From positions 27,088-91,087 of IMG/VR virus record IMGVR_UViG_3300016665_000619: 64,000 bases of DNA. The stretch is one strand, 5' to 3'. The notes under the pieces are model-generated. The model was given only the letters and a program-made list of their open reading frames with translations, was not told the origin of the DNA and searched no databases. The DNA comes from a virus. Positions 11,122 to 37,829 of this stretch are shown here, one piece after another. How positions within the stretch are numbered: position 1 is the first letter of the stretch; each line of letters opens with the position of its first letter. A program made the translations under genes and the position numbers.

Positions 11122-11316
11122 ATGACACCAATAGAAAGATTCAGAGAGTCCGCAAAAAAATTTATTCGTTCTAACAAAGATAAAGAAGCAATCTATCAAT
11201 ATTCGGTTGCTGTTTGGACCGCTACTATTCCCGGTAGTGGTCTTTCTTTTATGGACATTTTTGATGTTTTAGACGAAGAATTTGATAAGCATCTTAAAGA
11301 AGGAAAAGAAAGTTGA
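11122..11316 (+). CDS. Small hypothetical protein
   Basis: 64 aa; GAGG SD; stop overlaps the next start (TTGA). Confidence 0.65.
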   Translation: MTPIERFRESAKKFIRSNKDKEAIYQYSVAVWTATIPGSGLSFMDIFDVLDEEFDKHLKEGKES

Positions 11317-12236
11317 CATTAAACGGCATACCAAAAGAATATTTCATCCCACCGGCTACAGAAGTTATATTTGTAGCTGATTTCTTTGCAGAAGAATTGA
11401 TTGGCGGAGCAGAGCTTACAAGCGAAGCAATTATCAAGGCTTCACCTTATAAGCTTTTCAAGCTTCATAGCCATTCTCTTACTGAACAAATGCTCAAACA
11501 GCATCGTGATAAGTTGTGGGTTTTTGGAAACTATACAATGGTTCCTCCACATATCCTTAATCAAGTAATGCAGCTTGGTGTTAAATACTATTTCTTTGAA
11601 TATGACTTTAAACCTTGCGTATTGCGCTCAACATTAAAGCACGAAATGCAATCTGGGAAACCATGCGATTGTCATACTCAAATGTATGGTAAGTTTCATG
11701 CAACTTTTATGACCGGAGCAAAAGTCCTTTATTGGTGTTCTGATAAGCAACGAGATAAGTTTTATTCGTTATATCCAGAGTTAAAAGGTCGCACAAAAGA
11801 TTTTACACAGGGCAGCACCTATTATCCAGAAACTATTCTTAACATTCGTAAGATTAGACAGCGTAAAGAAGCTGGTGAGTTAGTTCCAGAAAATCGCTGG
11901 GCTATTCTTGGCAGCGATAGCTGGATCAAAGGAACCGAAGACGCTATCAAATATTGTAAAGAAAACAATATGCCTTATGTGATTCTAAAAGGGCTTAGTA
12001 ATGAAAAGTTCCTCGAGGAATTGGCAAAGAGTAAGGGATTAGTTTTCTTTCCAAGAGATATTGATGTAGGATCACGCATTACTACAGAATGTAAATTGCT
12101 TGGTGGCGAACCTCTTGTTAATCATTTTGTATTGCACGTATCAGAGGAATGGTTTAATAAGAGTATTCCCGAGATTGAAGAATATTTGATTGACGGTCCT
12201 GCGAGATTTTGGCGTGTTTTACAGGAAAATAAATGA
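11313..12236 (+). CDS. Putative GT-B glycosyltransferase-like protein
   Basis: N-terminal GGAE motif, WIKG, and a C-terminal D-x-G-SRITTECKLLG resembling the GT4 EX7E region. Confidence 0.6.
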   Translation: MTLNGIPKEYFIPPATEVIFVADFFAEELIGGAELTSEAIIKASPYKLFKLHSHSLTEQMLKQHRDKLWVFGNYTMVPPHILNQVMQLGVKYYFFEYDFKPCVLRSTLKHEMQSGKPCDCHTQMYGKFHATFMTGAKVLYWCSDKQRDKFYSLYPELKGRTKDFTQGSTYYPETILNIRKIRQRKEAGELVPENRWAILGSDSWIKGTEDAIKYCKENNMPYVILKGLSNEKFLEELAKSKGLVFFPRDIDVGSRITTECKLLGGEPLVNHFVLHVSEEWFNKSIPEIEEYLIDGPARFWRVLQENK

Positions 12237-12265
12237 TTTAAATCCATTAATGGATATGATATTCT
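12237..12265 (+). promoter_or_regulatory. Candidate sigma70-type promoter
   Basis: TTTAAA-N17-TATTCT with extended -10 TG. Confidence 0.5.
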
Positions 12266-12284
12266 AATAAATGGAGTTGAAGTA

Positions 12285-12425
12285 ATGACTATTGAACCAA
12301 AGCACAGAACAGAATTTACACCTGACACAGACGAAGTTTTCTTTATTCCCGAACGAGAGCCAAATGATCGGGAACATTATGAGCAGGATACAGAGTGGCC
12401 AGACGAGGATGAATACCGTGAGTGA
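12285..12425 (+). CDS. Unannotated 46-aa highly acidic protein
   Basis: MTIEPKHRTEFTPDTDEVFFIPEREPNDREHYEQDTEWPDEDEYRE; GGAG SD at 12273; stop overlaps the GTG of the next gene (GTGAGTGA). Confidence 0.65.
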   Translation: MTIEPKHRTEFTPDTDEVFFIPEREPNDREHYEQDTEWPDEDEYRE

Positions 12426-13431
12426 TCATTTTTACAAGCCATACGTTGATATTGGTTCCTTGGATTACAAGGACGTTTTCCTCGTTCCTCAATACAGCGA
12501 AGTAACCTCACGTTCGCAGGTGTCTACTTCTGTCCATATTGGAGATATGACAATTAACGTTCCTGTTATTTCTGCGAACATGGATACCGTCACCGCTGGT
12601 GAAATGGCTCAGGCTATGTCTGTTGGTGGTGGGATTGGTGCTATCCATCGTTTCATGGATGTAAATCAGAACGTTCGTGAGTTTGAGATCGCTCATGGCA
12701 ACCTTCATCCCTGTTTTGTTTCTATCGGTGTTAACGAAGAGAGCAGGGATCGAGCCGTAGCACTTTATAATGCTGGTGCTCGTAACTTTGTTATTGATAT
12801 TGCTCACGGTCATTCCCGCATGATGCGAGATATGACTACTTGGCTTCGTGGCAAGTATTCAGACGTTTATATTATGGCTGGAAATGTGGCTACTGGTCAG
12901 GCTGTTAGGGATCTTGTTTCTTGGGGCGCTAATGCTGTTAAAGTTGGTATTGGTCCCGGCAACGTTTGCACCACAAAGAATGTTACTGGTGTTACCGTTC
13001 CACAGTTTAGTGCTGTTAAGGAATGTGCTAGTGTTGTTCGTGGTATGCATAACAAGCCTCTAATTGTTGCTGATGGTGGTATTACCGAGATTGGTGATAT
13101 TGCTAAGGCTCTTGGTGCTGGTGCCGATCTTGTCATGTGTGGCAGATTGTTTGCAAGTTGCCGTGAGGCTCCCGGTGAGCGTGTAGGTGGTAAGAAGGTT
13201 TATCGTGGTATGGCAAGCCGTGATGCTATGTCAACAATTCGTAATCCTAACTCTCTTCCTACAGCAGAAGGCATTTCAACCCTTATTGATGCAAGCGAGC
13301 ATAGCGTCATTGATGTAGTTAATCAGATTAAGGGAGGTTTGCAGAGCGCCTTTTCTTATTCTAATGCTCGTAATCTCAGCGAATTCCATATGAATGCAAA
13401 CTTTGGAATTCGCCATACACAAATGAAGTGA
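12418..13431 (+). CDS. IMP dehydrogenase / GMP reductase family protein (no CBS domains)
   Basis: SANMDTVT, GGIGAIHRF, IDIAHGHS, AGNVAT, catalytic loop KVGIGPGNVCTT, ADGGI, YRGMAS. Likely start is GTG 12418 (GAGGA SD), not TTG 12292. Confidence 0.93.
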   Translation: MSDHFYKPYVDIGSLDYKDVFLVPQYSEVTSRSQVSTSVHIGDMTINVPVISANMDTVTAGEMAQAMSVGGGIGAIHRFMDVNQNVREFEIAHGNLHPCFVSIGVNEESRDRAVALYNAGARNFVIDIAHGHSRMMRDMTTWLRGKYSDVYIMAGNVATGQAVRDLVSWGANAVKVGIGPGNVCTTKNVTGVTVPQFSAVKECASVVRGMHNKPLIVADGGITEIGDIAKALGAGADLVMCGRLFASCREAPGERVGGKKVYRGMASRDAMSTIRNPNSLPTAEGISTLIDASEHSVIDVVNQIKGGLQSAFSYSNARNLSEFHMNANFGIRHTQMK

Positions 13432-13434
13432 AAT

Positions 13435-14400
13435 ATGACAAAGTTCCAGCTACCTCTATTTGAAGATCCTACAACCCTTCCAACCGGAAAGCATCACGTT
13501 TCTTATTCGGAAATCTCTGATTGGATGGATTGTTCTTATCGTCACCGTCTTAAGCACGTTGAAAAGATTATTCTTGGAAAGCCAAGCATCCATACAGAAT
13601 ATGGTCAGGTAATCCACGATGTTCTTGAGAATTATATTCTTGGTAAGCATGAGCTTAATGACGAAACGATTACTGCTGCAACAAAGCAGTTTCGTGAACA
13701 TTGCGATAAGCTAAAGGAGGAGCATGGCGTTGAAGTGTCTGATAAGGACTTTAATGATTTTGCAGCTTCAATTCCTCAGATTGTAAATGCAGTTCCAACC
13801 TTTATGGATGAAACGTTTCCAGGCTGGACAGGATTTGCAGCAGAGCACGCTCTATATGAGAGTGTAGCTGGACAAACAAACAAGTGGTTCAAGGGCTATA
13901 TTGATACCATCATTCGTATGCCCAAGAATGCCCGCAAGAAGCGTGGAAGTTCCTTGCCAGATAAGGACACCGATAAGCCAGTTGTAATGCGCCTATCGGA
14001 GCTTGTAGGGCAAGTAGAGGGTGGAGAGAAGCCAGAGTTTGGTGATGGATATGAGTTCTGGATTCTGGATTGGAAGACTACTTCATGGGGCTGGGATGCT
14101 ATGAAGAAGAGGGATTTCCAGAAGCAGTTGCAGCTTGTATTCTACAAGCATTATTTCTGTCGCCTATTCAATCTACGTCTTGATCAGGTTAAGTGTGGAT
14201 TTGTCTTGCTTAAGAGAACCCCACGTAAGACGGATAATAGCCGTTGTGAGCTTGTTCCAGTAAGTGTTGGACCAAAGACCGAGGCAAAGGCTCTTGAGGT
14301 TCTAAACAATATGATTAATCAGGTGGCAAGTGGTCGTGCAATCAAGAACAGGGCTTCTTGTAGGTTCTGCGATTATAATGGCACAGAGCATTGCACCTGA
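13435..14400 (+). CDS. PD-(D/E)XK nuclease, Cas4/AddB/RecB-like, with 4-Cys Fe-S staple
   Basis: SYS..W..C at the N-terminus, G..IH, E..L, GYID, ILDWKT, QL..Y, C-terminal CRFCDY....C. Confidence 0.88.
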   Translation: MTKFQLPLFEDPTTLPTGKHHVSYSEISDWMDCSYRHRLKHVEKIILGKPSIHTEYGQVIHDVLENYILGKHELNDETITAATKQFREHCDKLKEEHGVEVSDKDFNDFAASIPQIVNAVPTFMDETFPGWTGFAAEHALYESVAGQTNKWFKGYIDTIIRMPKNARKKRGSSLPDKDTDKPVVMRLSELVGQVEGGEKPEFGDGYEFWILDWKTTSWGWDAMKKRDFQKQLQLVFYKHYFCRLFNLRLDQVKCGFVLLKRTPRKTDNSRCELVPVSVGPKTEAKALEVLNNMINQVASGRAIKNRASCRFCDYNGTEHCT

Positions 14401-14429: not shown

Positions 14430-14461
14430 ATCCTGTGAGCTGTAAAGCCACAGGATTTTTT
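14430..14461 (+). terminator. Rho-independent terminator
   Basis: ATCCTGTG(A)GCT-GTAA-AGCCACAGGAT hairpin with a GNRA loop, followed by a T-run. Confidence 0.8.
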
Positions 14462-14551
14462 ATGTTTATGATTTGGATGAATGCTGCCGTATTAGGAATA
14501 GCAGTTTTAATTTTTATTGGAACAATAAGTTTAGGTAAGGGTAAAAAATGA
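14462..14551 (+). CDS. Possible 29-aa single-pass membrane peptide
   Basis: MFMIWMNAAVLGIAVLIFIGTISLGKGKK; stop overlaps the next start (ATGA). Confidence 0.4.
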   Translation: MFMIWMNAAVLGIAVLIFIGTISLGKGKK

Positions 14552-15063
14552 ATATAACATTTCGCACTATGTTAAAAGAATTGGGGCGTCCAGTTGCCGG
14601 GATTATTCATGTTGGAACAAATCTCGGAGAACAGGGCAGAGTATACTCAGACAACCATGTTCATCATGTTCTCTGGTTAGATCGTAATCGTGAAAATTTG
14701 TCTGGTTTATATAATAAAACAAAACAGTATCCTCTTATCCAGCAATATATTACTGAAGTGTTTTTAGATCGTGATATTCATAACGTTTCAAAAACATTTG
14801 ATAGTTTTCAAAGAGAAAATGTTGCAAAGCTTCCTATTGAAAAATATGATACTGTCATAGTAGACGTAGATGATGGTAGTGAGATGAAAGTGCTTCAAGG
14901 ATTTGAAAAGAATCTGAGCCGCTCCCCATCTTTTATTAGAAATATTCATACCAAGGTAAGAGGGGTTGGAGATATGGATCAGTATCTTTCCCAGTTTGGT
15001 TTTAAACAAGTTTGCAAAAGCTTAAATGAAATAGGATGGGGCGACGTGCTCTATACAAGGTGA
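14548..15063 (+). CDS. FkbM-like methyltransferase (degenerate)
   Basis: GIIHVGTNLGEQ, VDVDDGSEMKVLQG (cf. IDVQGAEL.VLKG), WGDVLY. Confidence 0.6.
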   Translation: MNITFRTMLKELGRPVAGIIHVGTNLGEQGRVYSDNHVHHVLWLDRNRENLSGLYNKTKQYPLIQQYITEVFLDRDIHNVSKTFDSFQRENVAKLPIEKYDTVIVDVDDGSEMKVLQGFEKNLSRSPSFIRNIHTKVRGVGDMDQYLSQFGFKQVCKSLNEIGWGDVLYTR

Positions 15064-15067
15064 CAAG

Positions 15068-16072
15068 ATGAAGATAAGTGCATATTGTACTGTAAGAAAT
15101 GCATTAGAAATGGAATATCCATATTTGGAGTCTATTCGTAGTCATTTGGCATTTGCTGATGAAGTAGTTGTTTTTGATACAAGTAATGGCAAGGATAAAA
15201 CATTAGAAACTTTAAATGCATTAGCTACAACAGAACCAAAACTTAAAGTTGTTCACAGCGATAAGGTTCCATGGGATGCTCCAAATCACGGAATGTATGA
15301 TGGTTATACCAAAACTCTATCAAGAAAACAATGCACAGGAGATATTCTTTGGCAGTTTGATATCGATGAAGTTGTTCATGAAAAGCACATTCCACTAATC
15401 AAGCCGCTTGCTGAAACATTCATGAAACAAAATATATATCATTTATTAGCACTTCCTGTGGTTGATTATTGGGGACGTGATGGTAAAGCAAGATTAGATG
15501 TAACTGTATGGAAATGGCGTTTATCTAAAAATCATTCAGATATATTGCACGGCATTCCATTGCATTTACGAAAGTATGAAAACGGTTTGTTGTATGCACA
15601 ACATGGAACAGATGGTTGCGACTACATATCCGCTGATAGTGGTCATATTATTCCATGTGCTGGATATTTGCCACCAGGATTTGAACATATAAAACAATCA
15701 GCAATTCGTGATGAAAGATTGGTTCCAAAAGTAGAAAAGTTTCTTAACGATACTTTAAAAGAACTACCAGGCGTTCATCATTATTCTTGGTTTAACATTG
15801 AGCGGAAGATTAGAAACTTCAGAACATTCTGGAATGCTTCATGGAAGAGTCTCTATAACGAAGACAGAGACGAAAAAACAAATCCATTCTTTCCTGGTCT
15901 TACTTGGGCAGAGATAACGGATGATATGATTAAGCAAAAATCTTTAGAGCTCGAACAAGGAACTGGTGGGCATGTATTCCATCGTCCTTGGGATGGAAGT
16001 AAAAATAATTCATATAGAGTTGAAATGGGTCATCCAGATATAGTAAAAGATTGGATTGAGAGAAACAAATGA
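15068..16072 (+). CDS. Glycosyltransferase family 2 (GT-A)
   Basis: KISAY..VRN, YPYLESIRS, DEVVV.D, CTGD.LWQFDIDE (DxD). Confidence 0.85.
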   Translation: MKISAYCTVRNALEMEYPYLESIRSHLAFADEVVVFDTSNGKDKTLETLNALATTEPKLKVVHSDKVPWDAPNHGMYDGYTKTLSRKQCTGDILWQFDIDEVVHEKHIPLIKPLAETFMKQNIYHLLALPVVDYWGRDGKARLDVTVWKWRLSKNHSDILHGIPLHLRKYENGLLYAQHGTDGCDYISADSGHIIPCAGYLPPGFEHIKQSAIRDERLVPKVEKFLNDTLKELPGVHHYSWFNIERKIRNFRTFWNASWKSLYNEDRDEKTNPFFPGLTWAEITDDMIKQKSLELEQGTGGHVFHRPWDGSKNNSYRVEMGHPDIVKDWIERNK

Positions 16073-16908
16073 AAATATCTGTTATAGGTAATGGTTTTGT
16101 TGGAGGCGCAGTTGCAAATGGATTTAAGCACAGAAATCCTTTAGTGTATGATGTAGTGCCTTCTCGTTCTAATTGTTCACTAAACGAAGCTTTAAAAGCC
16201 GAATATATATTCGTTTGCCTTCCTACTCCAATGACTCATGTAGAAGGAGGCAGAGCAAATCTTTCAATATTGTATAGTTTTTTTGAGAGCATAAAAGAAC
16301 TGCCATTGAAAGGAACATTCATTATTAAATCGACTGTTCCAGTAGGCACAACAAGAGCTTTATCCGAAAAATACTCACAGTTTAGATTTGTTCACAATCC
16401 AGAGTTTTTAACTGCTGCTAATGCGAATCATGATTTCATTAATGCTGATAGAACTGTATTAGGTGGCTCAGTTCAAGATGTTGATAAAGTGGCAACATTA
16501 TATGAAACAGATTTTCCAAACATTCCTATTGTTCGTATGGATTCAAACGAATCTGAATTGGTAAAATATGCCGCAAATTGTTTCTTGGCTTTAAAGGTTA
16601 TGTTTTTTAACGAAATAAAGCTTCTTACTGAAGATATCAATGTAAATTATCAAAAAGTCATTGATGGTGTTTCTGCCGATGTAAGAATAGGTCGATCCCA
16701 TACTAGAGTTCCTGGTCCAGATGGAGATTATGGCTTCGGCGGCACGTGTTTTCCCAAAGATATTAATGCTTTTATAAATGTTATAAAAGATTTAAATGGC
16801 AATGCAAAATCTGATATCTTCGAAGCTGTTTGGAAAAGAAATAAAGAAATTAGAAAAGATTGGGACTGGGCTAACAGTAAATCTGCTGTTTTAAAGGAAG
16901 AAAAATGA
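16069..16908 (+). CDS. ugd: UDP-glucose/GDP-mannose 6-dehydrogenase family (lacks C-terminal domain)
   Basis: IGNGFVG, VCLPTP, IKSTVPVG, HNPEFL, SELVKY..N, GFGGTCFPKD. Confidence 0.88.
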   Translation: MKISVIGNGFVGGAVANGFKHRNPLVYDVVPSRSNCSLNEALKAEYIFVCLPTPMTHVEGGRANLSILYSFFESIKELPLKGTFIIKSTVPVGTTRALSEKYSQFRFVHNPEFLTAANANHDFINADRTVLGGSVQDVDKVATLYETDFPNIPIVRMDSNESELVKYAANCFLALKVMFFNEIKLLTEDINVNYQKVIDGVSADVRIGRSHTRVPGPDGDYGFGGTCFPKDINAFINVIKDLNGNAKSDIFEAVWKRNKEIRKDWDWANSKSAVLKEEK

Positions 16909-17771
16909 AAATAGTTACCAATGATTATGGCTGCGGAACATCGAGTTCTATATTAGATTACAATACAGATAATGTGATTATAGTTTCTGAACAAAATCAC
17001 AAGCATCTTTTTGATGTTCGTGGTGAAGACTTATTGTTTATTGGTCATGACTTTTTAATGTATCTTTGGGATAGTCCAATATATCGATCACATTGGAAAA
17101 ACTATAAAGGTAATAAGCACATTTATTGTTTTGAAAAGATCGATTGCATAGTTCCTCAATGGCAGCAAAAAAGTCATTATAGTCTTTCTCTCTGTCAGCA
17201 ATTTACAAATAGCTTCTATGCTAGTGATGAACAAGATTGCCGTAAGTATGGAATCAATTGGTTGCCTCAATGGGCTTCTAGAAGATTCTATGATCAGCGT
17301 TCTCAGGCACCACAAGAAAATCGTATAACCTTTAGTGGACAAGCTGGGACTATCGGATATGAAAAAAGAGATCAGCTTATGGCGCTTATAGCTAATGATT
17401 CAGATATTAAGGATAAGTTCTACGTAAGCAACAAAGGTAGAACAAAGTCTTGGGATGATTACATATCAAACTTTCTTAATCATAAAATCATATTGGCACC
17501 TTTTGGAAATTTTAAAGGTTTTAATACAAGAACATATGAAGCATTGACCTCTGGAAGAATTTTACTTCAACAAGTTGATAGTGAATATAAATGGCATATT
17601 GATTCTATATCGAAGTTTAAAAACGTGATATTTTTCGAAACGTTTGAAGAACTAAAAAATATTTTATTAAATGCTTCGGCTGATGAAATGCAGAACCGAT
17701 TTGATCAAGAGCCGCTTAATCAATATGAAGAAAACAATTTAATTAGTCGATTAAAACTGGTTGAAAAATGA
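16905..17771 (+). CDS. Putative glycosyltransferase (CgeB/GT-B C-terminal type)
   Basis: ITFSG..R, NTRTYEAL.SG..LLQ motif. Confidence 0.65.
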   Translation: MKIVTNDYGCGTSSSILDYNTDNVIIVSEQNHKHLFDVRGEDLLFIGHDFLMYLWDSPIYRSHWKNYKGNKHIYCFEKIDCIVPQWQQKSHYSLSLCQQFTNSFYASDEQDCRKYGINWLPQWASRRFYDQRSQAPQENRITFSGQAGTIGYEKRDQLMALIANDSDIKDKFYVSNKGRTKSWDDYISNFLNHKIILAPFGNFKGFNTRTYEALTSGRILLQQVDSEYKWHIDSISKFKNVIFFETFEELKNILLNASADEMQNRFDQEPLNQYEENNLISRLKLVEK

Positions 17772-17790
17772 TTAGTATAAAGGATTTAAA

Positions 17791-18495
17791 ATGAGAGAAA
17801 ATATTAATATCGAAGAAGTTACTGTGGAAAGATGGATGGAAGCTCAAAAGGCAGAATTAGCGTGTTGGGTTAATGAGCCTAATGATAATGAAGATTGGAA
17901 TTCATGGTGGGCTTCCAAATTCATGAATTATGAATTTCTTAAAAGAGAAAAAAAGATTGAATCGATATATGAAGTCGGCTGCGGTCCTTATGCTAAAAAC
18001 ATTGAGCTAGTATGTCATTCATTAGGATATACTCCAAAACGTATCCTATTAGAAGATCCATTGTTAGAACAATATATTTCTTTAAACAAGTCTGTTAAAC
18101 GTTTTTCTGGATATTCAAACATAAAAATGTTTAGTAAGCCAATGGAACAGTTTTCATTAGCAGAACATAATGTCGAACCAGTTGATGTATTGATCTGCAA
18201 CAATGTTTTAGATCACGTTCAATCTGTTGAAGCTTGTTTTCAGCATATGTTCTCATCACTAAAAGATGATGGTATATTAATTTTTGGTCAAGATTTAACT
18301 TCCAATGAGGACATTTTAAAACATGGTGACTTAAATGATCCTTGTCATCCTATAAGACTTGATGAATCAGTTATAAGAAAACATGTTGAATCGTATACGA
18401 CAATATATGAAAATATATTGCCAAGAGAAGAAGGCAGAAACCCAGAGTATCATTACGCAACATTTATATTTGCAGGTCGAAAGAAAAAGATATGA
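17791..18495 (+). CDS. Class I SAM-dependent methyltransferase
   Basis: YEVGCGP, DPL, D.LICNNVLDHV, LKDDG. Confidence 0.85.
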   Translation: MRENINIEEVTVERWMEAQKAELACWVNEPNDNEDWNSWWASKFMNYEFLKREKKIESIYEVGCGPYAKNIELVCHSLGYTPKRILLEDPLLEQYISLNKSVKRFSGYSNIKMFSKPMEQFSLAEHNVEPVDVLICNNVLDHVQSVEACFQHMFSSLKDDGILIFGQDLTSNEDILKHGDLNDPCHPIRLDESVIRKHVESYTTIYENILPREEGRNPEYHYATFIFAGRKKKI

Positions 18496-20017: not shown

Positions 20018-20032
20018 TAAGCAGGCTATAAT

Positions 20033-21357: not shown

Positions 21358-21366
21358 GAGTTGTGT

Positions 21367-21675
21367 ATGGCAGACACGCTAGGTTCTATAATTGATAAGT
21401 TAATAACTGTTGATATGAAAATGTGGAATAATCAAGAAATTTTATATGACATTCGAAGAATGACATTTGAAGAATACAAACAAAAATATTTTCACGATGA
21501 AAATGGTGCCGATCTTTTGTGGCAAACATTAAAAAAAGCTTGTGATTTAAATGTGCAAAGAAATCAATTGATCAATGAGGTTGATGCAAAAATAATTGAA
21601 ATGATCAAAACCGCAGTTAACAATGAAGATTTAGACAACGGAAAATATTTGCAAAGAGCTCACAAAACTTACTAA
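21367..21675 (+). CDS. Helical hypothetical protein (DUF4254-like)
   Basis: TLGSIIDKL...N.QRN.LI.EVD; AGGAG SD. Confidence 0.6.
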   Translation: MADTLGSIIDKLITVDMKMWNNQEILYDIRRMTFEEYKQKYFHDENGADLLWQTLKKACDLNVQRNQLINEVDAKIIEMIKTAVNNEDLDNGKYLQRAHKTY

Positions 21676-21683
21676 TATACTTT

Positions 21684-26025: not shown

Positions 26026-26723
26026 ACATGCATAGAAAAGATATTATTGGGGACATTATTAAAAAGTATAACTACCAATCTTACTTGGAATTGGGGCTAC
26101 TTGATCCTTCATATGTTTTTAACCATATACCTTGCAAGTTGAAACATTCAGTTGATATTAATGTTCAATTTGCAACTTTCAATATGTCCACTGACAAATT
26201 TTTCTATGATTTGAAATCTGGCACACTAAGTTTGCCTAAAGATAATAAGTGGGATGCAATCTTCATCGATGCAAATCATTTAGCAAATTTTGTAAAAAGA
26301 GATTTGTTAAACGCTTTAGAATGTTTGTCGGATCATGGCACTATATTTCTTCACGACACATTACCGCCAGATTACAATTCTCAACTTGAAGATAGAATAT
26401 GTCAAACTGCTTGGAAGATAATACCATATGCTTTAAAGCATTTGCCACAAATTCATGTATGTTCTGTTTCTGAAGATGGTGGTGGACTAGGAATCGTTAG
26501 GAAGAATAAAGAAAATGACAGAAACGTTTTGCCACATTCCTATAACGAATTTTATGAATATTATCTTATGAACAGCAATAGACAGATATCTCAAAACTTC
26601 ATAGAACATTCGCAATTAAATTCATGGTTAGAAAATCCATTTTATAACTTTGAAAAACTAAATTGTCAAACTGATTTTGATATTTTTAACGATCCTTCAA
26701 AAGTCCAATTTGTTTGGAAGTGA
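26022..26723 (+). CDS. Class I methyltransferase (Methyltransf_24-like)
   Basis: SYLELG, SVD, D.IFIDANH, G.IFLHD..P. Confidence 0.8.
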   Translation: MNMHRKDIIGDIIKKYNYQSYLELGLLDPSYVFNHIPCKLKHSVDINVQFATFNMSTDKFFYDLKSGTLSLPKDNKWDAIFIDANHLANFVKRDLLNALECLSDHGTIFLHDTLPPDYNSQLEDRICQTAWKIIPYALKHLPQIHVCSVSEDGGGLGIVRKNKENDRNVLPHSYNEFYEYYLMNSNRQISQNFIEHSQLNSWLENPFYNFEKLNCQTDFDIFNDPSKVQFVWK

Positions 26724-26726
26724 CAT

Positions 26727-27362
26727 ATGCCTATAAAAAAACATAATCCATATAAAATTGTTCAAATGTTTGAGGAAGAGATAGCAGAGTATACAGGAGC
26801 TCCATATGCAGTTTCTGTAGACAGTTGCACAAATGCACTATTTCTTTGTTGCACCTATCTTAAGGTTAAAGAAGTTACCATTCCTTCAAAAACGTATTTA
26901 TCTGTTCCAATGAGCATTATTCATTCTGGCGCCCAGGTTATTTTTGATAAAAGAACAGAAACTAACAATTGGTGTGGAACATATCAGCTTAAGCCTTATC
27001 CAATATATGATGCCGCAAAAAGACTAACAACAAACATGTATATTCCAAATAGCTATATGTGTCTTTCTTTTCATATTAAGAAACATTTAGGCATTGGAAA
27101 AGGAGGCATGATTTTGACCGACAACAAAGAAGCTGTAGAATGGTTTAAGAAAGCCAGATATGAAGGTCGAAGCGAAAAGTATTATCGTGAAGACAATATA
27201 TCTTCACTAGGCTGGAACATGTACATGACGCCACAAGAAGCAGCTCAAGGTCTATGTTTATTACAAAACTATCCTTTGCATAACAAAGATTTGGATGAAA
27301 CAAATGGCTATAGAGATTTGACAGAATTTGAGATTTTTAAAACTAATAAAATTATAGAATGA
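26727..27362 (+). CDS. DegT/DnrJ/EryC1/StrS aminotransferase, short form
   Basis: FEEEIAEY.G..YAV.VDSCT.AL, YDAA, SFHIKKHL..GKGGMI (PLP Lys); only 211 aa. Confidence 0.85.
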   Translation: MPIKKHNPYKIVQMFEEEIAEYTGAPYAVSVDSCTNALFLCCTYLKVKEVTIPSKTYLSVPMSIIHSGAQVIFDKRTETNNWCGTYQLKPYPIYDAAKRLTTNMYIPNSYMCLSFHIKKHLGIGKGGMILTDNKEAVEWFKKARYEGRSEKYYREDNISSLGWNMYMTPQEAAQGLCLLQNYPLHNKDLDETNGYRDLTEFEIFKTNKIIE

Positions 27363-28471
27363 ATATGATACCGGTATATAAACCTTATGTGGCGCCAAAT
27401 ACAAAGTCGTATTTGTCATCTGTTGTTGATGCCAATTGGTATTCTTCTGGCGGATACTATTATGAAGCAGCAAAAAATAAATTGCAGGAACTGCTAAATG
27501 TTAAACATATACTTTTGACAAACAATGGAACTTCCGCCACTCATTTACTAGCAAAAATTTTAACATATAAAAAGCCTATAAAAAAAATAATATGTCAAAA
27601 TGGGGCATATGTAGCAGCTTGGAATTCTTTCTTGTTTGACAACAAGTATTCTTTAGAAGTATGTGATTTAAATTTAGAAACCTGGAATTACGACCGTGAA
27701 GAATTGAATAAAGTTCTTGCGAATGAAAATCCTGAAAATGTTGCATTGCTAGTTGTTCACAATATTGGAAATCCTTTTGAGTATAATGATAAAAGATTTT
27801 TAGTTGTTGAGGATAACTGTGAAGGGTTTTTAGGAACATATAATGTAAACAAAAAAACCGGCACTAATTGTTTGGCATCTTCAGTTTCTTTTTTTGCAAA
27901 CAAAAACATAACTTGTGGCGAGGGCGGAGCAGTAGTAACAAATGATGATGACTCCTACGAGTTTATAAACACAGTTCATGGACAAGGACAATCGGCGAAA
28001 CGTTTCATTCATTCCCATCTTGGATACAACTATCGTATGACAAATGTTGCTGCTGCAATTTTGTTAAGTCAACTAGAAGTAGTTGATGAAATATTGGATA
28101 AAAAGCAACAACTATTTAATTTCTACAGAAAAGAACTGAACGATATCGAAAGTGTTTCTGTTCAACGTGTTGAAAATACATGTGAACATTCAAATTGGAT
28201 GTTTGGAATAAGAATTCAAAACTCTGAATATGATAAAGCACAACATTATTTTAATCAAAATGGAATTGAGATAAGACCAATGTTTTATCCTATGTCTGAT
28301 CAGCCATATATTAAATCTTTTATTGAATCAAATGTTGTAAACATTCGTAGTGAAAAAAATGCAAAGCTTCTTAACAAAGAAGCAATTGTAATACCTAGTT
28401 TCCCAGACATAACAACGTCTGAACGTAATCACGTTATTAATGTTATTAAAAACTATGTGAGTTTATTATGA
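27359..28471 (+). CDS. DegT-family sugar aminotransferase (GDP-perosamine synthase-like)
   Basis: NNGTSA.HL, VVEDNCEG, SFFANKNITCGEGG, GYNYRMTNV.AAI, RPMFYP. Confidence 0.88.
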   Translation: MNMIPVYKPYVAPNTKSYLSSVVDANWYSSGGYYYEAAKNKLQELLNVKHILLTNNGTSATHLLAKILTYKKPIKKIICQNGAYVAAWNSFLFDNKYSLEVCDLNLETWNYDREELNKVLANENPENVALLVVHNIGNPFEYNDKRFLVVEDNCEGFLGTYNVNKKTGTNCLASSVSFFANKNITCGEGGAVVTNDDDSYEFINTVHGQGQSAKRFIHSHLGYNYRMTNVAAAILLSQLEVVDEILDKKQQLFNFYRKELNDIESVSVQRVENTCEHSNWMFGIRIQNSEYDKAQHYFNQNGIEIRPMFYPMSDQPYIKSFIESNVVNIRSEKNAKLLNKEAIVIPSFPDITTSERNHVINVIKNYVSLL

Positions 28472-29442
28472 CTTATCTTGTTACAGGAGCACACGGTCTA
28501 TTAGGAAAAGCTCTAACAGAACAAATCCATTTGGCAAACAAGAAATGTGTAGCGCCAAAAATAGACGAACTAAATTTATTTAATCAACGAGAAGTTGAAA
28601 ACTATATAAGCAAATTTGAATGCGCAGATGGTCAAGGATTATATAGCAAGATATCTTGTGCTTTTCATCTTGCTGCAAAAGTAGGGGGAGTTAAATCAAA
28701 TTCTAGTTATCTTGGTGCGTTTTATCATGATAACATTATAATAAACACAAATTTCCTAGAGCAATGTGTGAAGTATAGTATACCCAAAGTAGTCTCTGTT
28801 CTTTCTACTTGCGTATATCCTGATGCCCCATATGTTCATTATCCTCTTACTGAAGAACAATTGCACATGGGACCACCACATGATAGCAACTTTGGATATG
28901 CATATGCCAAAAGAATGTTAGACGTTCAAACACGTGCATATCGTAAACAATATGGCGTCAATTACATAACAGTTATTCCTAATAATTTATTTGGAGAACA
29001 TGATAACTTTCATTTAGAAGATAGTCACGTAATTCCAGCTCTTATGAGAAAAATATGGGAAGCAAAACTTAGTAATAGTCCCACAGTTGAAATATGGGGC
29101 GACGGCAGTCCACTAAGAGAGTTTACTTACTCTGGTGACATTGCTCGCATATTGCTAAAAGTATCTGAAGAATATAATGAAGAAATGCCACTCAATGTTG
29201 GTAATACAGAAGAACATTCCATATCTTCAGTAGCAAATAAGCTCGTTGAATATCTAGAATATGATGGTAAGTTAGTTTTCAATATCAATAAACCATCAGG
29301 GCAATTTAGAAAACCATCTTCAAACAAAAGATTGTTAGAAAAAACAAGTTGGAAGGTAGAAGACTATACTCCATTTGATGTTGCTTTGAAAAAAACCTGT
29401 GAATGGTTTAAAGTAACATATCCAAATGTAAGAGGAGTATAA
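28468..29442 (+). CDS. fcl: GDP-L-fucose synthase (GDP-4-keto-6-deoxymannose epimerase/reductase)
   Basis: [54 protein letters not shown]. Confidence 0.93.
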
Positions 29443-30425
29443 TGTCAAAACAAAAGACTGCGTTCATTACTGGCGTTACTGGTCAGGATGGTTCTTATTT
29501 AGCTAAATTTCTTTTAGATAAAGGTTATCGTGTTATAGGTATGAAGCGCAGGACTTCTCTTATAACCACAGATAGATTAGACGATATAGAAATCTTTAAT
29601 CATCCAAACTTCAAACTTGAATATGGGAATATGACGGATTCAAGTTCTGTCTATCATCTTCTTACAAAATATAAGCCCGACGAGATATATAATCTTGCAG
29701 CACAGAGCCATGTTAGGGTTTCTTTTGAGGTTCCAGAAGAAACCTTGGACGTAGTAGGTGGTGGCACTTTGAAGCTTTTAGAGGCTTATAGGCTAATCTG
29801 TCCTCATGCTCGTTTCTATCAAGCATCATCTTCAGAGATGTATGGAGATAATGTTAATGTGCCGCAGAACGAAGAGACACGTATGACGCCAGCTTCGCCG
29901 TATGCTGCTGCAAAGTTATATGCACATAATCTTTGCCGTAACTATCGTGAAGGTTATGGACTTCATATATCATCTGGTATATTGTTTAATCATGAAAGTC
30001 CAGTAAGAGGCGAAACGTTTGTTACACGTAAGATTACTCTTGCGGCAGCAAATATAAAACTTGGAAAACAGGATACTTTATATCTTGGTAATCTAGAAGC
30101 AAAGAGAGACTGGGGATTTGCCGGAGATTACGTAGAAGCTATGTGGATGATGCTTCAGCAACCAAAGGGCGATGATTATGTTATTGCAACTGGCGAGACT
30201 CATACCGTAGAAGAATTCTTACATGTTGTATTTGAGCACGCCGGATTAGATGTTAACAAACATGTGAAGATTGATTCAAGATTGTTTAGACCACATGAAG
30301 TTCCTATATTGCTTGGAGACAGTTCTAAAGCTCAAAGAGTTTTAGGCTGGAAACCAAAGACAACATTTCGTGGTTTAGCTGAAATGATGTATGAGGCAGA
30401 TTATCATAGAGCTCTTAATCTTTGA
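29442..30425 (+). CDS. gmd: GDP-mannose 4,6-dehydratase
   Basis: [74 protein letters not shown]. Confidence 0.97.
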
Positions 30426-30488
30426 TATTCTAGTTCTAAACATATCTCAACATATTAGCGAAAATATCAACATCACTAGGAGATAGTA

Positions 30489-31820
30489 ATGTCAGAAGAG
30501 AACACATTTCTCACAGCTTTTAATTTTAAAAAGAAGTATAAGGTAATCACGCTTTCAGATCATCCACTTGCACCATCAGGTGTTGGAGTTCAAGCACGCT
30601 TTCTTATTGATGGTCTAATCAAGACCGGACAATGGTCATTCCGCTGCTTAGGCGGCGCAATGAAGCACGCAAAGTATGATACGATAGCTGTTAACCCTGA
30701 CTTCATTGTAAAGCCTGTAGACGGCTTTGGAAGCAAGGAACTAATACGTCAACTTCTTATCGCAGAACAGCCAGATGCTATCTTCTTGTTTACAGATCCA
30801 CGTCAGTTTACCTGGCTTTGGGAAATGGAAGATGAGATTCATCAAGTATGTCCAATAGTCTATTGGCACGTTTGGGATAATGATCCATATCCAGCATTCA
30901 ACTTCCCATGGTATGAAAGCACTGATCTTATTAACTGTCTTTCGTATAAGACTTTTGAGTTGGTGAAGCCACATTTCCCAGAGAAGACAAATTATATTCC
31001 TCACACATTCCCAAAGCAGGTATACAACCAGCTTCCAGACGAACAAATAAAGCAGCTCAAACAACAAAACTTTGGTCCAAAGGCTGATTGGTTTAAAGCT
31101 CTTTGGGTTAATCGCAACGCTACACGTAAGATGCCAAACGATGTTCTCTTCTCTTGGAAGACATTCCTTGATGATCTTGAAAAGAAGGAAGGACACCGTA
31201 ATGCAGTTCTAATCATGCATACAGATCCAAATGACATGGAAGGACCAAACCTTCTTGCTGTATCTGATATGCTTGGATTAAATGAAAACGTTTGGTTCTC
31301 AAATGATCGTCTTCAGTTTGAGCAAATGAATGTCATGCATAATCTTGCTGATGTAACTGTGAATATTTCAAAGAACGAAGGATTTGGTCTTTCAACTCTT
31401 ATTTCATTACAAGTTGGTAAGCCAATCATCGCTCTTAAGACCGGCGGCGAAACACGTCAGGTAGAAGATTATCGTAATGGCTATCAGTATGGCGTAGCTA
31501 TTGAACCAGTAAAACGTTCTCTTGTCGGGTCACAAATGGTTCCATATATCTTTGAGGATTATTGCACAGAACGTCAGTTAGCAGATGCTTTCATGGAGAT
31601 TTACAGTTGGAGTCCAGAGAAGAAAGCAGAGTTCCGTGAAAAGGCAGCCGAATACCTTGAGCATGAATTCAAATATGAAAATATGATTCAACAATGGCAT
31701 GAAACCATGTTAAAGTGTGTAGAAGACTTCAAGGCAAAGAAAGAATCAGGACAGCTTAAGAGATGGAAGTTACAAGGTGTCAATCCTGCTCCTGCCAATA
31801 AGTTAATCAATATTAAGTGA
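30489..31820 (+). CDS. Glycosyltransferase family 4 (GT-B)
   Basis: SDHP..PSGVG.Q, NRN..RK, EGFGL, G.PII..TGG. Confidence 0.88.
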   Translation: MSEENTFLTAFNFKKKYKVITLSDHPLAPSGVGVQARFLIDGLIKTGQWSFRCLGGAMKHAKYDTIAVNPDFIVKPVDGFGSKELIRQLLIAEQPDAIFLFTDPRQFTWLWEMEDEIHQVCPIVYWHVWDNDPYPAFNFPWYESTDLINCLSYKTFELVKPHFPEKTNYIPHTFPKQVYNQLPDEQIKQLKQQNFGPKADWFKALWVNRNATRKMPNDVLFSWKTFLDDLEKKEGHRNAVLIMHTDPNDMEGPNLLAVSDMLGLNENVWFSNDRLQFEQMNVMHNLADVTVNISKNEGFGLSTLISLQVGKPIIALKTGGETRQVEDYRNGYQYGVAIEPVKRSLVGSQMVPYIFEDYCTERQLADAFMEIYSWSPEKKAEFREKAAEYLEHEFKYENMIQQWHETMLKCVEDFKAKKESGQLKRWKLQGVNPAPANKLINIK

Positions 31821-31834
31821 TAAGGGAAATAGTA

Positions 31835-33016
31835 ATGACAAAGAAAACAGTTATTCTTCGTGGTCCAGTATTAACCGAAAGTGGTTATGGTGTTCATGCT
31901 CGTCAAGTAGCTCGTTGGCTGTTTGATTTAGCGGATAGAACTGGTAATATTGATGTTGTAACAGAACCTCTTCCTTGGGGTGCTACTCCTTGGCTTGTTG
32001 ATGCATATGCTCATGATGGTCTTGTAGGTCGTCTTATTCAAGCTGCTGGCAAGAGAGATAAATACGATGTATCCCTCCAGCTTCAACTTCCAAACGAATG
32101 GAATCCATTTCTTGCAGATTTTAATATTGGTTTAACTGCTGGTGTTGAAAGCGATGTTTGTAATCCTGCATGGATATCTGCCATTAATCGAATGGACTTA
32201 TTAATTGTTCCTTCAGAATTTGTTAAAAACGTTTTTGCAAATACTGGCGAAATCAAGACAAAGATTGCCGTTATTCCAGAAGCATTTATTGACTCTGTTG
32301 CAAAGCCAGAACTTCCACAGCTTGATTTGGAAGAAATAAAAACAGATACAAATTTCTTGGTATTTGGACAGATTACCGGCAATAATCCAGAAAATGACCG
32401 TAAGAATATGTTTTATACGGTTAAGTGGTTGTGTGAACAGTTTGCAGATAACTCAAACGTTGGAGTCGTTATTAAAACAAATACCGGTCGCCAAACAGTT
32501 GTAGACCGTATCAGAACAACCAATTTATTATCTCAACTCACATTAGAAGTCAAGAAGGGTGCAGAGTTTCCGAAGATTTATCTTCTTCATGGAGATATGT
32601 CAGACGATGAAGTGGCTGCTCTATATCGCCACCCAAAGATCAAGGCTCTTGTTGCTCCAACTCGTGGTGAAGGATTTGGTCTTCCTATTCTTGAAGCAGC
32701 AGCTTCTGGTCTTCCAGTTATTGCTACTGGTTGGAGTGCTCATACTGAGTTCCTTGGCAAAGGAAAGTATGTTAAGCTTGATTATCGTCTTGAGCAAATT
32801 CATCCAACCCGTGTAGATAATCAGATTTGGATGCCAAATGCCAAGTGGGCAAACGTTAAGGAAGATGATTTCAAGCATCGTGTAAAGAAGTTTGTAGAAA
32901 GTCCACAGATGCCCCAACAATGGGCTAAGGAACTATCCGAAACTCTTAAGCGTGAATATTCTTTTGAAGCAGTAGCGGCTCAATATACTGAACTTCTTAA
33001 GGACGTGTTAGGATGA
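31835..33016 (+). CDS. Glycosyltransferase family 4 (GT-B)
   Basis: SGYG.HAR, IVPS, DRKN, TRGEGFGLPILEAAASGLPVIATGWS.H.EF. Confidence 0.92.
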   Translation: MTKKTVILRGPVLTESGYGVHARQVARWLFDLADRTGNIDVVTEPLPWGATPWLVDAYAHDGLVGRLIQAAGKRDKYDVSLQLQLPNEWNPFLADFNIGLTAGVESDVCNPAWISAINRMDLLIVPSEFVKNVFANTGEIKTKIAVIPEAFIDSVAKPELPQLDLEEIKTDTNFLVFGQITGNNPENDRKNMFYTVKWLCEQFADNSNVGVVIKTNTGRQTVVDRIRTTNLLSQLTLEVKKGAEFPKIYLLHGDMSDDEVAALYRHPKIKALVAPTRGEGFGLPILEAAASGLPVIATGWSAHTEFLGKGKYVKLDYRLEQIHPTRVDNQIWMPNAKWANVKEDDFKHRVKKFVESPQMPQQWAKELSETLKREYSFEAVAAQYTELLKDVLG

Positions 33017-37827: not shown

Positions 37828-37829
37828 TT

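Follow-up and report, generated by a model that had tools for sequence, protein, structure and literature searches.

Chlorovirus PBCV-1 encodes GMD/GMER and carries glycans on its capsid. In bacteria, flagellin and pilin glycosylation islands and the GtfA/GtfB and SdgA/SdgB systems use soluble, often tandem glycosyltransferases (GTs) of the GT-B type, which act in the cytoplasm and set the first sugar on Ser-rich motifs, while strain-variable accessory GTs and sugar-modifying genes of protein O-glycosylation islands elaborate the glycan. Among phages, O-glycosylation of the virion by phage-encoded GTs was chemically demonstrated for mycobacteriophages (Freeman et al. 2023, as cited in PMC12619734 and PMC12801897). 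Moraphages, large aquatic phages related to Rhodothermus phage RM378 and probably infecting Bacteroidota, carry four core GT orthogroups (PMC12619734). Phage glycan clusters of large size have been described before: P-SSM2 has 24 'LPS' genes and S-SCSM2R has 22 genes with 13 GTs, and the authors read these T4-like cyanophage clusters as modifiers of the host surface or of DNA (PMC1079782, PMC12801897). The description of the present locus in an earlier note as unusually complex for a phage was overstated, because these two phages carry as many such genes.

Anatomy of the glycan island

The locus was analysed in a window of 64,000 nucleotides taken from a 91-kb contig, which represents ~24% of its genome (CheckV). 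It comes from an uncultured giant phage of fresh water, myovirus-like and about 300-380 kb in genome size. The glycan island occupies 18.5 kb (14548-33016, plus strand) and comprises 23 ORFs, all on the same strand and frequently overlapping by 4 nt (Table 1). The earlier note had drawn a cluster of about 22 genes at 11313-33016; the cluster is real and its left boundary had to be moved. The ORF at 11313-12236, which has no family match, the GuaB-like gene and the nuclease gene were rejected as glycan genes on their family content and on the terminator standing between them and the operon. This hairpin (dG -20.3 kcal/mol, z -6.56; equally stable shuffles 0/200) closes the nuclease transcription unit and delimits the glycan operon on its left. 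Within the island, sites resembling promoters or terminators were not above shuffle frequency, and no late-promoter motif candidate was found ahead of the operon. At its far end lies the conserved late-module gene 33395; the 'late sigma' identity once given to it (33395-34237) found no match in Pfam, PHROGs or PDB. The membrane-anchored protein directly after the GT pair is syntenic in 72/79 related loci and matched nothing in family searches.

Table 1. Features of the glycan island and its borders (window coordinates)
Feature	Position	Strand	Basis
GuaB-like IMPDH/GMP reductase	12292-13431		family search
PD-(D/E)XK nuclease	13435-14400		family search
Intrinsic-terminator-like hairpin, then U6	14430-14462	+	fold
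171-aa left-frame protein, possibly FkbM-like methyltransferase	14548-15063	+	weak PHROG methyltransferase match, E 5.6e-4
GT2-like left-frame protein	15068-16072	+	Pfam Glycos_transf_2 E 9.4e-4, below cut-off
Short NDP-sugar dehydrogenase-like protein (mini-UGDH), 279 aa	16069-16908	+	PF03721 + PF00984 only
Probable compact GT-B-like glycosyltransferase	16905-17771	+	Atlas feature score 0.96 to Glyco_trans_1_2 clusters
Variable 'serotype' cassette, 15 ORFs	17791-28471	+	Pfam, NCBIfam, PDB, Atlas
Methyltransferase	17791-18495	+	Pfam/NCBIfam/PDB
ORF without named family	starts 18492	+	
Glyco_trans_1_2 GT	19118-20017	+	Pfam
ORF without named family	starts 20033	+	
NeuD/PglB/VioB-family acetyltransferase, PglD/PerB-like	20746-21357	+	Pfam/NCBIfam/PDB
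Small ORF	starts 21361	+	
Compact GT-B-like protein	21684-22433	+	Atlas
PhyH	22430-23182	+	1.8e-21
WbqC	23179-23868	+	9e-73
Methyltransferase	23865-24488	+	Pfam/NCBIfam/PDB
NeuD/PglB/VioB-family acetyltransferase, PglD/PerB-like	24485-25147	+	Pfam/NCBIfam/PDB
GH130-like	25144-26025	+	weak GH130/GINT1_N match, below cut-off
TylF-type methyltransferase	26022-26723	+	Pfam/NCBIfam/PDB
Short DegT-like protein	26727-27362	+	
Perosamine-synthase-like DegT	27359-28471	+	best solved relative perosamine synthetase 3bn1, 4e-39
GDP-L-fucose synthase (fcl/GMER)	28468-29442	+	PDB 4e5y 1.4e-72; NF047922 8.4e-65
GDP-mannose 4,6-dehydratase (GMD)	29442-30425	+	TIGR01472 3.7e-135, 450.5 bits, cut-off 415
Core GT4 glycosyltransferase A	30489-31820	+	Pfam GT1; E-x7-I instead of EX7E
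Core GT4 glycosyltransferase B	31817-33016	+	Pfam GT1 + GT4-conflict; canonical EX7E (EGFGLPILE)
136-aa protein, single N-terminal membrane anchor, coiled-coil tail	33013-33423	+	KD segment score 2.73

Conserved ends and an exchanged centre

The two ends of the island are conserved, whereas its centre is swapped as a whole among close relatives. The flanks are 74-96% identical in relatives; the cassette found almost no tblastn match in 19 related sequences having both flanks and is nearly without counterpart. Its G+C content is 31-34% against 38-42% in the flanks. The cassettes of relatives carry other genes (GT2, GT10, GT11, GT47, FkbM methyltransferases, DegT, FdtA and epimerases), and 603 upstream ORFs in 52 loci fell into 270 families with a median Jaccard index of 0.04.

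In the left frame, the 171-aa protein is 73-86% identical across 8 relatives and has no Pfam match; the GT2-like protein is 79-87% identical in relatives and 36% in G007, a complete, colinear 305-kb genome of the clade; and the GT-B-like protein, also without a Pfam match, is 83-84% identical in 4 relatives. The gene formerly called ugd retains the dehydrogenase motifs, GxGxxG and the catalytic Cys motif GGTCFPKD, and is missing the C-terminal UDP-binding domain: against TIGR03026 it scores 169.6 bits (cut-off 189.8) over profile positions 74-296 of 413. Its homologues occur in 24/79 loci. In the right frame, fcl is 74-81% and GMD 88-96% identical in relatives, the latter being present in 47/79 loci.

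Pfam, NCBIfam and PDB-sequence searches confirmed the GDP-sugar genes recognised earlier (gmd, fcl and the perosamine-synthase-like DegT), and family and PDB-sequence searches agreed on the two acyltransferases, WbqC and PhyH. Three of the four methyltransferase-like genes were borne out, the fourth (14548-15063) having its weak PHROG match only, and the presumed GH propeller gives a weak match to GH130/GINT1_N, below cut-off. The short DegT-like protein is not a fragment, since the cultured Flavobacterium phage immuto_2-6A (hereafter immuto) has a 44% identical counterpart.

The core glycosyltransferase pair

Both core GTs are predicted to fold as retaining-type GT4 enzymes. AF2 models of A and B (pLDDT 86.9 and 90.8) have NY-2A chlorovirus B736L (PDB 3oy2) as best solved fold match (E 2.7e-17 and 8.8e-17), which is also the best PDB sequence match for A; SdgB is among the fold matches of a core GT. 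Judged by homology searches, the pair is phage-specific, essentially without close bacterial homologues: A, which is very conserved, has 5058 homologues, the best 120 all being at least 61% identical, and just 6 matches among 185,579 species genomes, every one a MAG contig. Weak relatives of B with 26-27% identity occur in Streptomyces phages. The two genes stand in tandem in 75-77 of the 79 loci and in phages immuto and Mel-JY01, while in RM378 the position of B is taken by a 425-aa ORF without established identity. The pair lies directly ahead of the baseplate module in about 75/79 related loci, and about 63-77 of them preserve the order GT pair, membrane protein, 33395, baseplate genes. Phages of Bacteroidota, Cyanobacteria and Rhodothermus carry the pair (hosts Flavobacterium, Microcystis and Rhodothermus). 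As to the number of GTs, the earlier figure of up to nine is an upper bound because Pfam supports four (15068-16072 as a weak GT2, 19118-20017 and the core pair) and Atlas adds two, so that four to six are supported.

Export machinery and the host envelope

The absence of polytopic membrane proteins reported earlier was upheld by a Kyte-Doolittle scan, which found none in the cluster or the 91-kb contig; polytopic proteins numbered 0/90 among neighbouring ORFs and 1/1552 across 79 loci. The search for flippases was extended beyond the window to 8 related records, including 4 complete genomes (immuto, Mel-JY01, RM378 and a 484-kb phage). PF01943, PF04932, PF01061, PF02397 and PF00953 (Wzx, Wzy_C, ABC-2, Bac_transf, WecA-type) were absent from all 8 records, as from the island, and positive controls matched. 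In G007 there was no match to Wzx and none of the ORFs is flippase-like, the single strongly polytopic one being 1596 aa long.

The step from missing membrane proteins to a cytoplasmic virion acceptor is weak alone, because soluble GTs could borrow host priming and export enzymes. O-antigen GTs are normally soluble or peripheral, and such enzymes are equally normal in O-antigen and capsule pathways using host WecA, Und-P and exporters, which counts against the virion as acceptor. The island could assemble a novel glycan of the O-antigen, capsule or S-layer type on a host lipid carrier and alter the surface of the infected cell, the host supplying the priming transferase, the flippase or ABC exporter and the ligase; possible gains are superinfection exclusion, grazer avoidance and no re-adsorption of progeny to lysing cells. 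Genes as in O-antigen and capsule loci (GMD, Fcl, Per-like, PerB-like, WbqC, GT2, GT4, GT11), a hypervariable cassette that looks like serotype loci, an operon that appears pre-late and a single-pass membrane protein after the GT pair all fit such remodelling, which is the standing hypothesis for the P-SSM2 and S-SCSM2R genes (PMC1079782, PMC12801897). Against it stand the searches above, the near absence of polytopic neighbours and a core pair with essentially no close bacterial homologues, retained although Flavobacterium, Microcystis and Rhodothermus have very different envelopes. The lineage also looks strictly lytic, a weak point on the same side. A host exporter, moreover, generally accepts only the repeat unit of its own pathway. 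On balance we consider envelope remodelling unlikely, yet deserving of serious attention.

DNA and soluble glycans as alternative products

The transferases might instead glycosylate a hydroxylated base of phage DNA to evade restriction, on the model of T4, RB69/DLP3 and 5mYOX-associated clusters. To our knowledge, no DNA bears amino-deoxy sugars with acyl and methyl groups. Glycans with two or three sugars, heptose and Kdo included, have been described on DNA (bioRxiv 10.1101/2023.12.21.572611; PMC13326640). Across distant relatives the GT pair adjoins a PD-(D/E)XK nuclease and nucleotide-metabolism genes; Mel-JY01 has a C5-cytosine methyltransferase and SAM synthetase just upstream, and the 484-kb phage LR756508 has a ThyA homologue about 2 kb upstream. 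Nucleoside LC-MS, the check proposed in the earlier note, is available in published form for immuto, a carrier of both the GT pair and a sugar cassette: LC-UV-MS/MS gave canonical dA, dC and dT together with fdPreQ1 and showed no nucleoside bearing a sugar (PMC10516641). DNA is an unlikely acceptor because of these nucleosides, because RM378 and Mel-JY01 have no ThyA-family gene and because G007 ThyA keeps the canonical dUMP-type Asn (PFNIAS). Further, no C5-methyltransferase was found in the phage's own contig, G007-type contigs, immuto or LR756508, and by fold the core GTs match GT4 enzymes best rather than T4 beta-GT. The Tet_JBP search was run without a working positive control, with 24% of the own genome sampled. 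We regard DNA glycosylation as very improbable.

Somewhat less remote, though still improbable, is a free oligo- or polysaccharide with methyl or acyl groups, in the manner of the polymethylated polysaccharides of mycobacteria, or a glycosylated metabolite or host cytoplasmic protein serving host takeover. All encoded steps are cytoplasmic, methyltransferases make up 13/148 cluster representatives, a GH130-like protein is present, and the fold neighbours of the GT pair include GT4 enzymes that act on small molecules or soluble glycans, namely MshA, BshA, GlgM, sucrose-phosphate synthase and 7qsg, a mannosyltransferase for methylmannose polysaccharide. GT4 fold neighbours, however, say little about the acceptor, and such a product gives no obvious reason for wholesale cassette turnover between near-identical phages or for fixed synteny with the baseplate module.

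The virion as proposed acceptor

The best reading, held tentatively and at a little under even chances, is that the phage's own virion is the most likely target of the island's glycans. GMD and GDP-fucose synthase convert host GDP-mannose to GDP-4-keto-6-deoxymannose and GDP-L-fucose, and the cassette contributes several small GTs, WbqC, PhyH, enzymes of the O-methyltransferase type, an aminotransferase resembling perosamine synthase and N-acetyltransferases like PerB and PglD. The GT4 pair may put the first sugars on a phage-intrinsic cytoplasmic acceptor, for which its phage specificity and its sharing by phages of three host phyla argue. The likeliest acceptors would be those baseplate and fibre proteins that face outward, modified while the virion is being assembled; the variable cassette would then set the rest of the glycan's form, and a strain-specific virion sugar coat under diversifying selection could result. 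Since the operon lacks a late-promoter motif and ends with a late-module gene, the sugar-nucleotide pools and transferases would probably be made before, or as, structural proteins appear.

The cytoplasmic, virion-protein acceptor proposed earlier agrees with the missing export genes of relatives, the phage-specific GT pair and the immuto DNA, while the membrane-protein argument and the sequon test lend it little. In every examined pair-carrying genome the motif [ST]GS is present at 2.4-2.7x expectation, with its sites concentrated in ORFs for fibre and baseplate (T4 ratio: 0.7). G002, a 202-kb sister-clade contig about 70% complete, has no GT1 or GT2 family match, yet its baseplate homologues keep the excess (9 vs 1.4) and have three motif columns in common. 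[ST]GS may thus have a structural role and not be a sequon, and the one covariation test of sequon against GT pair, which included this partial contig, did not support a link. Also counting against the virion are the missing late-promoter motif, the roughly 24% sampling of the phage's own genome, and the location of the GT pair in immuto, Mel-JY01 and RM378, inside the replication/nucleotide-metabolism region and away from structural genes.

Comparison with known systems

The island shares with chloroviruses and giant viruses a virus-encoded GMD, GDP-fucose synthase and soluble cytoplasmic GTs. Those are viruses of eukaryotic hosts, with sequence identity of 14-16%, and no acceptor is established for B736L either; we know of no hypervariable cassette in them. 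With bacterial O-glycosylation islands, whose substrates are exported bacterial proteins, there is an analogy of logic only and no specific sequence relationship. Wzx/Wzy or ABC-transporter O-antigen and capsule loci are similar in GMD, Fcl, Per, PerB-like, WbqC, GT2 and GT4 genes and in a variable centre between conserved flanks, but the island is without priming phosphoglycosyltransferase, flippase or ABC permease, polymerase or ligase.

In mycobacteriophages, as far as the citing papers relate, cytoplasmic phage GTs act on structural proteins without export, the glycan shielding the virion surface, and we propose the same function here. By the same accounts that system has few GT genes, no sugar-nucleotide synthesis or decoration cassette and actinobacterial hosts, and it modifies capsid and tail-tube subunits at their C-termini. 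Moraphages are alike by description, being large, aquatic, RM378-related and equipped with core GTs whose function was left open, in a paper without island anatomy or acceptor analysis (PMC12619734). Similar by described gene content are P-SSM2, S-SCSM1 and S-SCSM2R, lytic aquatic myoviruses with large clusters of NDP-sugar epimerases/dehydratases and many GT2, GT4, GT10 and GT11 genes; their descriptions have no swappable-cassette frame, fixed pre-baseplate GT4 pair or genome-wide export-gene test (PMC1079782, PMC12801897). New here is an island with conserved ends, a replaced centre and a phage-specific GT4 pair before the baseplate module.

The phage and the limits of the operon

The source viral contig is 91,087 bp long, of which bases 27088-91087 form the window; no terminal repeat was found on it and its completeness was estimated by CheckV as ~24%. 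The genome of a complete relative, G007, measures 305,036 bp, is bounded by direct terminal repeats and runs colinear with the window between primase and baseplate. The window phage is accordingly a giant aquatic phage with a genome of about 300-380 kb. Phage-like genes flank the locus, among them those for a 1459-aa protein resembling a tail fibre, a primase, a subunit of the baseplate wedge and large structural proteins. Neither megablast with the whole cluster nor tblastn with a 571-aa neighbour gave a match among 50,697 phage records.

Every ORF between 11313 and 36063 lies on the plus strand. The glycan cluster of the earlier note is real, but its limits of 11313-33016 were too wide, as the first three ORFs are not glycan genes and a hairpin precedes 14548 (see table; ORFs are named by their start in the window). 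The hairpin is bulged, was overlooked by a simple terminator scan and was confirmed by folding. Promoter-like and terminator-like sites within the operon do not exceed their frequency in shuffled sequence. The GuaB-like protein, which might supply GTP for GDP-sugars or serve purine salvage, has homologues in G007, in the sister-clade contig G002 and in Microcystis phage Mel-JY01, where it lies beside the homologues of the two tandem GT4-type glycosyltransferases 30489 and 31817 (the GT pair). Two gaps in otherwise tightly packed surroundings, 11100-11312 (213 nt) and 37828-38113 (286 nt), hold no ORF of at least 80 aa.

Features of the locus, with positions in the window
Feature	Position	Strand	Basis or remark
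No family match	11313-12236	+	Pfam, NCBIfam
GuaB-like IMPDH/GMP reductase, 379 aa	12292-13431	+	IMPDH and GMP reductase equivalogs both matched below cut-off
PD-(D/E)XK nuclease	13435-14400	+	Family search
Stable hairpin, then U6	14430-14462	+	dG -20.3 kcal/mol, z -6.6; ends nuclease unit
Glycan operon	14548-33016	+	23 tightly packed ORFs, 4-nt overlaps frequent
Mini UDP-sugar dehydrogenase, 279 aa	16069-16908	+	
Variable centre (cassette)	17791-28471	+	
Short DegT-like ORF, 211 aa	26727-27362	+	
Glycosyltransferase 30489	30489-31820	+	GT4 type
Glycosyltransferase 31817	31817-33016	+	GT4 type
Membrane-anchored protein, 136 aa	33013-33423	+	Overlaps start of 33395
ORF 33395	33395-34237	+	

A conserved frame around a swappable cassette

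Relatives were gathered from IMG/VR by searching with two flanking proteins. Among them the left side (nuclease, 14548 and 15068) is kept at 73-96% identity, and the right side (Fcl, GMD, both GT4 genes and all that follows) at 74-96%. The centre has almost no counterpart in these relatives, and the distance from flank to flank ranges from 12 to 21 kb. It is also the most AT-rich part, with a G+C content of 31-34% vs 38-42% in the flanks. The relatives' own centres encode other sugar enzymes, namely GT2, GT10, GT11 and GT47 enzymes, FkbM methyltransferases, DegT, FdtA, UDP-GlcNAc 2-epimerase and GHMP kinase.

A profile sweep with 30489 yielded 308 viral loci; 80 of them were retained, and synteny was counted on 79. 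Gene order is fixed in about 63-77 of the 79: 30489, 31817, the 136-aa membrane-anchored protein, 33395, 34292, 36112, 38114 and the baseplate wedge. The 8-10 kb upstream of the GT pair are hypervariable, 603 ORFs in 52 loci falling into 270 families (172 singletons) with a median pairwise Jaccard index of gene content of 0.04. These families are mostly NDP-sugar enzymes, GT2, GT11 and many methyltransferases.

Enzymes of the operon

GMD scores above its equivalog cut-off. The GDP-L-fucose synthase (Fcl; best solved relative PDB 4e5y, 1.4e-72), the DegT aminotransferase (best solved relative perosamine synthetase 3bn1, 4e-39; relatives are labelled 'perosamine synthetase' in JGI records) and the PerB assignment of the two acetyltransferases, which belong to the NeuD/PglB/VioB family and resemble PglD and PerB, all depend on the closest solved relatives and score under the NCBIfam equivalog cut-offs. 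A GDP-6-deoxyhexose pathway (GDP-L-fucose, GDP-perosamine) is represented by GMD and Fcl together with a GDP-4-keto-6-deoxymannose 4-aminotransferase and an N-acetyltransferase; the operon showed no gene for a GDP-mannose pyrophosphorylase. WbqC, PhyH and three class-I methyltransferases complete the list of firm identities, to which all the preceding enzymes belong.

Up to nine glycosyltransferases had been counted earlier, which is a maximum: four are backed by Pfam, one of them weakly, and two compact GT-B-like proteins are suggested by the Atlas. The gene previously called ugd keeps the NAD motif and the catalytic cysteine and is devoid of the C-terminal UDP-binding domain; the same short form occurs in 24 of the 79 related loci. 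The half-size DegT-like ORF is 44% identical to the protein of Flavobacterium phage immuto at MW353176 56691-57335, and adjoins a hexapeptide acetyltransferase in both phages. It probably represents a distinct short family rather than a pseudogene. Permissive Pfam and PHROGs searches gave nothing for 11313, 14548, 18492, 20033, 21361, 33013, 33395 and 34292.

The glycosyltransferase pair

Glycosyltransferase 30489 has 5058 homologues in a metagenomic protein collection; each of the best 120 of the 5058 has full-length identity of 61% or more, and many of these 120 lie on contigs of 200-470 kb. Among 185,579 species genomes only six matching loci were obtained, each on a MAG contig, and one of these contigs (108,871 bp) is equal in size to an IMG/VR viral contig from the locus sweep. 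More distant tandem homologues of the pair are found in immuto and Mel-JY01, where further sugar genes come after it. In Rhodothermus phage RM378 the 30489 homologue is followed by an unannotated 425-aa ORF without a BLAST match to 31817, and a 30489 homologue is also present in an uncultured 484-kb phage.

Pfam PF00534 and PF13692 match the pair, which has the GT-B fold of two Rossmann domains with a C-terminal Glycos_transf_1 domain. The EX7E motif is canonical in 31817 (EGFGLPILE) and varied in 30489 (E-x7-I, the second glutamate being replaced). The AlphaFold models are confident (pLDDT 86.9 for 30489 and 90.8 for 31817). For both, chlorovirus NY-2A B736L (3oy2) is the nearest structure and ordinary retaining GT4 enzymes come next; the top PDB matches are without exception GT4, and T4 beta-glucosyltransferase does not appear in the leading structure matches of either model.

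Export machinery and the host envelope

The reading that we favour, while giving it slightly under an even chance, is cytoplasmic glycosylation directed at the virion, in which a conserved pair would prime the glycan and a swappable cassette would elaborate it. Its main competitor, remodelling of the host envelope through host exporters, is rather unlikely in our estimate. No polytopic ORF was detected by KD scan in the operon, in agreement with the earlier note, or in the whole 91-kb contig. WbaP/Bac_transf (PF02397), WecA/Glycos_transf_4 (PF00953), Wzx (PF01943), Wzy_C (PF04932) and ABC-2 (PF01061) are absent from the window contig and from seven related records, which include the complete immuto, Mel-JY01 and RM378 genomes and the 484-kb phage; positive controls for these searches matched in 10-14 reference genomes. 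The absence of these five export and priming families argues against a lipid-linked pathway with membrane steps of the phage's own; the enzymes may still draw on host machinery. In the complete genome of G007 there is no Wzx match and no flippase-like ORF by KD scan, the sole strongly polytopic ORF being a 1596-aa protein. Only one of 1552 neighbouring ORFs across the 79 loci is polytopic: L148:24-3605, directly upstream of the GT pair in that one locus, encodes 1193 aa with ~10 hydrophobic segments and has no Pfam family. Membrane O-antigen genes elsewhere in the genome, named earlier as possible partners of the cluster, were not found as far as the relatives and the ~24% of the genome sampled show.

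Proteins of ~300-380 aa with a similar pattern of four hydrophobic segments were observed in immuto (46506-47651, shortly before the nuclease and the GT pair), Mel-JY01 (156200-157333) and RM378 (39213-40106); those of immuto and Mel-JY01 have no Pfam family.

DNA as a possible acceptor

Glycosylation of DNA is highly improbable. The DNA of immuto_2-6A, which carries the GT pair, was analysed by LC-UV-MS/MS and contains dA, dC, dT and fdPreQ1, while glycosylated nucleosides were not found (PMC10516641); the evidence against sugar-modified virion DNA comes in this respect from the literature on this one cultured carrier. No ThyA-family gene (PF00303) was found in the window contig, RM378 or Mel-JY01, and G007 has a ThyA of dUMP type with the canonical Asn; these results also speak against DNA as the acceptor. 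No hydroxylated-base enzyme, either a ThyA-like hydroxymethylase/hydroxylase or a C5-methyltransferase with TET/JBP, was detected, the Tet_JBP part being uninformative as this profile matched nowhere, controls included. The lack of TGT matches is likewise uninformative, as the published DpdA3 of immuto escaped that model; QueC was found in immuto only.

A C5-methyltransferase was detected in Mel-JY01 only, among the records searched. There a SAM synthetase, this unannotated C5-cytosine methyltransferase (match 1.4e-38), a PD-(D/E)XK nuclease, GuaB and the GT pair stand in one row (PP395634 78787-86302, locus L026). This row of genes is the strongest hint left of a role related to DNA.

Downstream genes and timing

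The 136-aa protein carries a single membrane anchor at its N terminus and a charged tail of coiled-coil type; it stands in synteny with the GT pair in 72 of 79 loci and gave no family match. It was considered as common to immuto and rejected, since the immuto ORF at that place is an unrelated zinc-ribbon protein. ORF 33395, a putative late sigma factor in the earlier note, is kept in 77 of 79 loci, with 27-35% identity in immuto and Mel-JY01; no similarity to Pfam, PHROG or PDB entries could be detected for it. The operon contains no copy of the candidate late motif ATATTTA/ATATCTA, which appears first at 34280, then at 36098 and 38100. Because of this first position, the operon and 33395 are probably expressed before the late genes. 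Such timing fits every acceptor reading, including a soluble cytoplasmic glycan or some other acceptor, to which we give a small chance.

Virion proteins and the [ST]GS motif

In the window contig [ST]GS occurs 65 times vs 26 expected, concentrated in three fibre/baseplate ORFs (21 vs 4.7, 10 vs 1.5 and 9 vs 1.4 expected). Five ORFs (window 40444-52106, -1088..1713) hold 48 copies vs 13, 7 and 6 of the permutations G[ST]S, [ST]SG and S[ST]G. The excess is 1.9-2.7-fold in immuto, RM378, Mel-JY01 and G007; the T4 ratio is 0.7. The contig G002 (L064-L074; 202 kb, about 70% complete) has no GT1/GT2 match, yet an equal excess. Its baseplate proteins (e.g. 3083-6589) are as rich in the motif as those of GT-bearing phages, and three motif columns are common to homologues that are 36-38% identical. 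That [ST]GS tracks the GT pair is not supported by this single contrast, in which about 70% of the genome was sampled. Our limited literature search found no paper with a chemically shown glycan on capsid or tail proteins of this lineage.

Meaning and comparison with known systems

Virion-directed glycosylation can be drawn out into a more specific proposal, which we hold tentatively: huge aquatic phages may be coated with sugars that differ from strain to strain. The phage-private GT4 pair, at its constant place where the baseplate module begins, would start the glycan on outer baseplate and fibre proteins, perhaps at [ST]-G-S, and the adjacent island, exchanged at the pace of a bacterial O-antigen locus, would set the remaining glycan. 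If so, virion 'serotypes' would be a new layer of the arms race of phage with host and environment in hundreds of uncultured phages. Such serotype-like particle diversity would affect adsorption, decay, grazing, adhesion and the reading of structural-protein diversity in viromes; were the host envelope the acceptor, the locus would be a widespread module for exclusion or for manipulation of the host.

Published work already describes big sugar clusters of aquatic phages, and glycosyltransferases among the core genes of large aquatic phages (PMC1079782, PMC12801897, PMC12619734); the purpose of such clusters in lytic aquatic phages has been a question since P-SSM2 in 2005. The present analysis newly adds the anatomy of frame and cassette, a phage-specific pair with a constant place ahead of the baseplate module, a lack of export genes across the lineage, and a connection to a cultured phage with unglycosylated DNA. 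The locus makes the question testable, as the pair or a 30489 homologue is present in three cultured phages, immuto, Mel-JY01 and RM378, one of them with sugar-free DNA.

O-antigen and capsule loci of the Wzx/Wzy or ABC type differ from this locus by their priming phosphoglycosyltransferase, flippase or ABC-2 permease and Wzy, none of which was seen here with ~24% of the window genome sampled. NDP-sugar synthesis genes and several glycosyltransferases are common to both, and the phage-encoded soluble glycosyltransferases of this locus are a feature of the mycobacteriophage type of virion glycosylation system.
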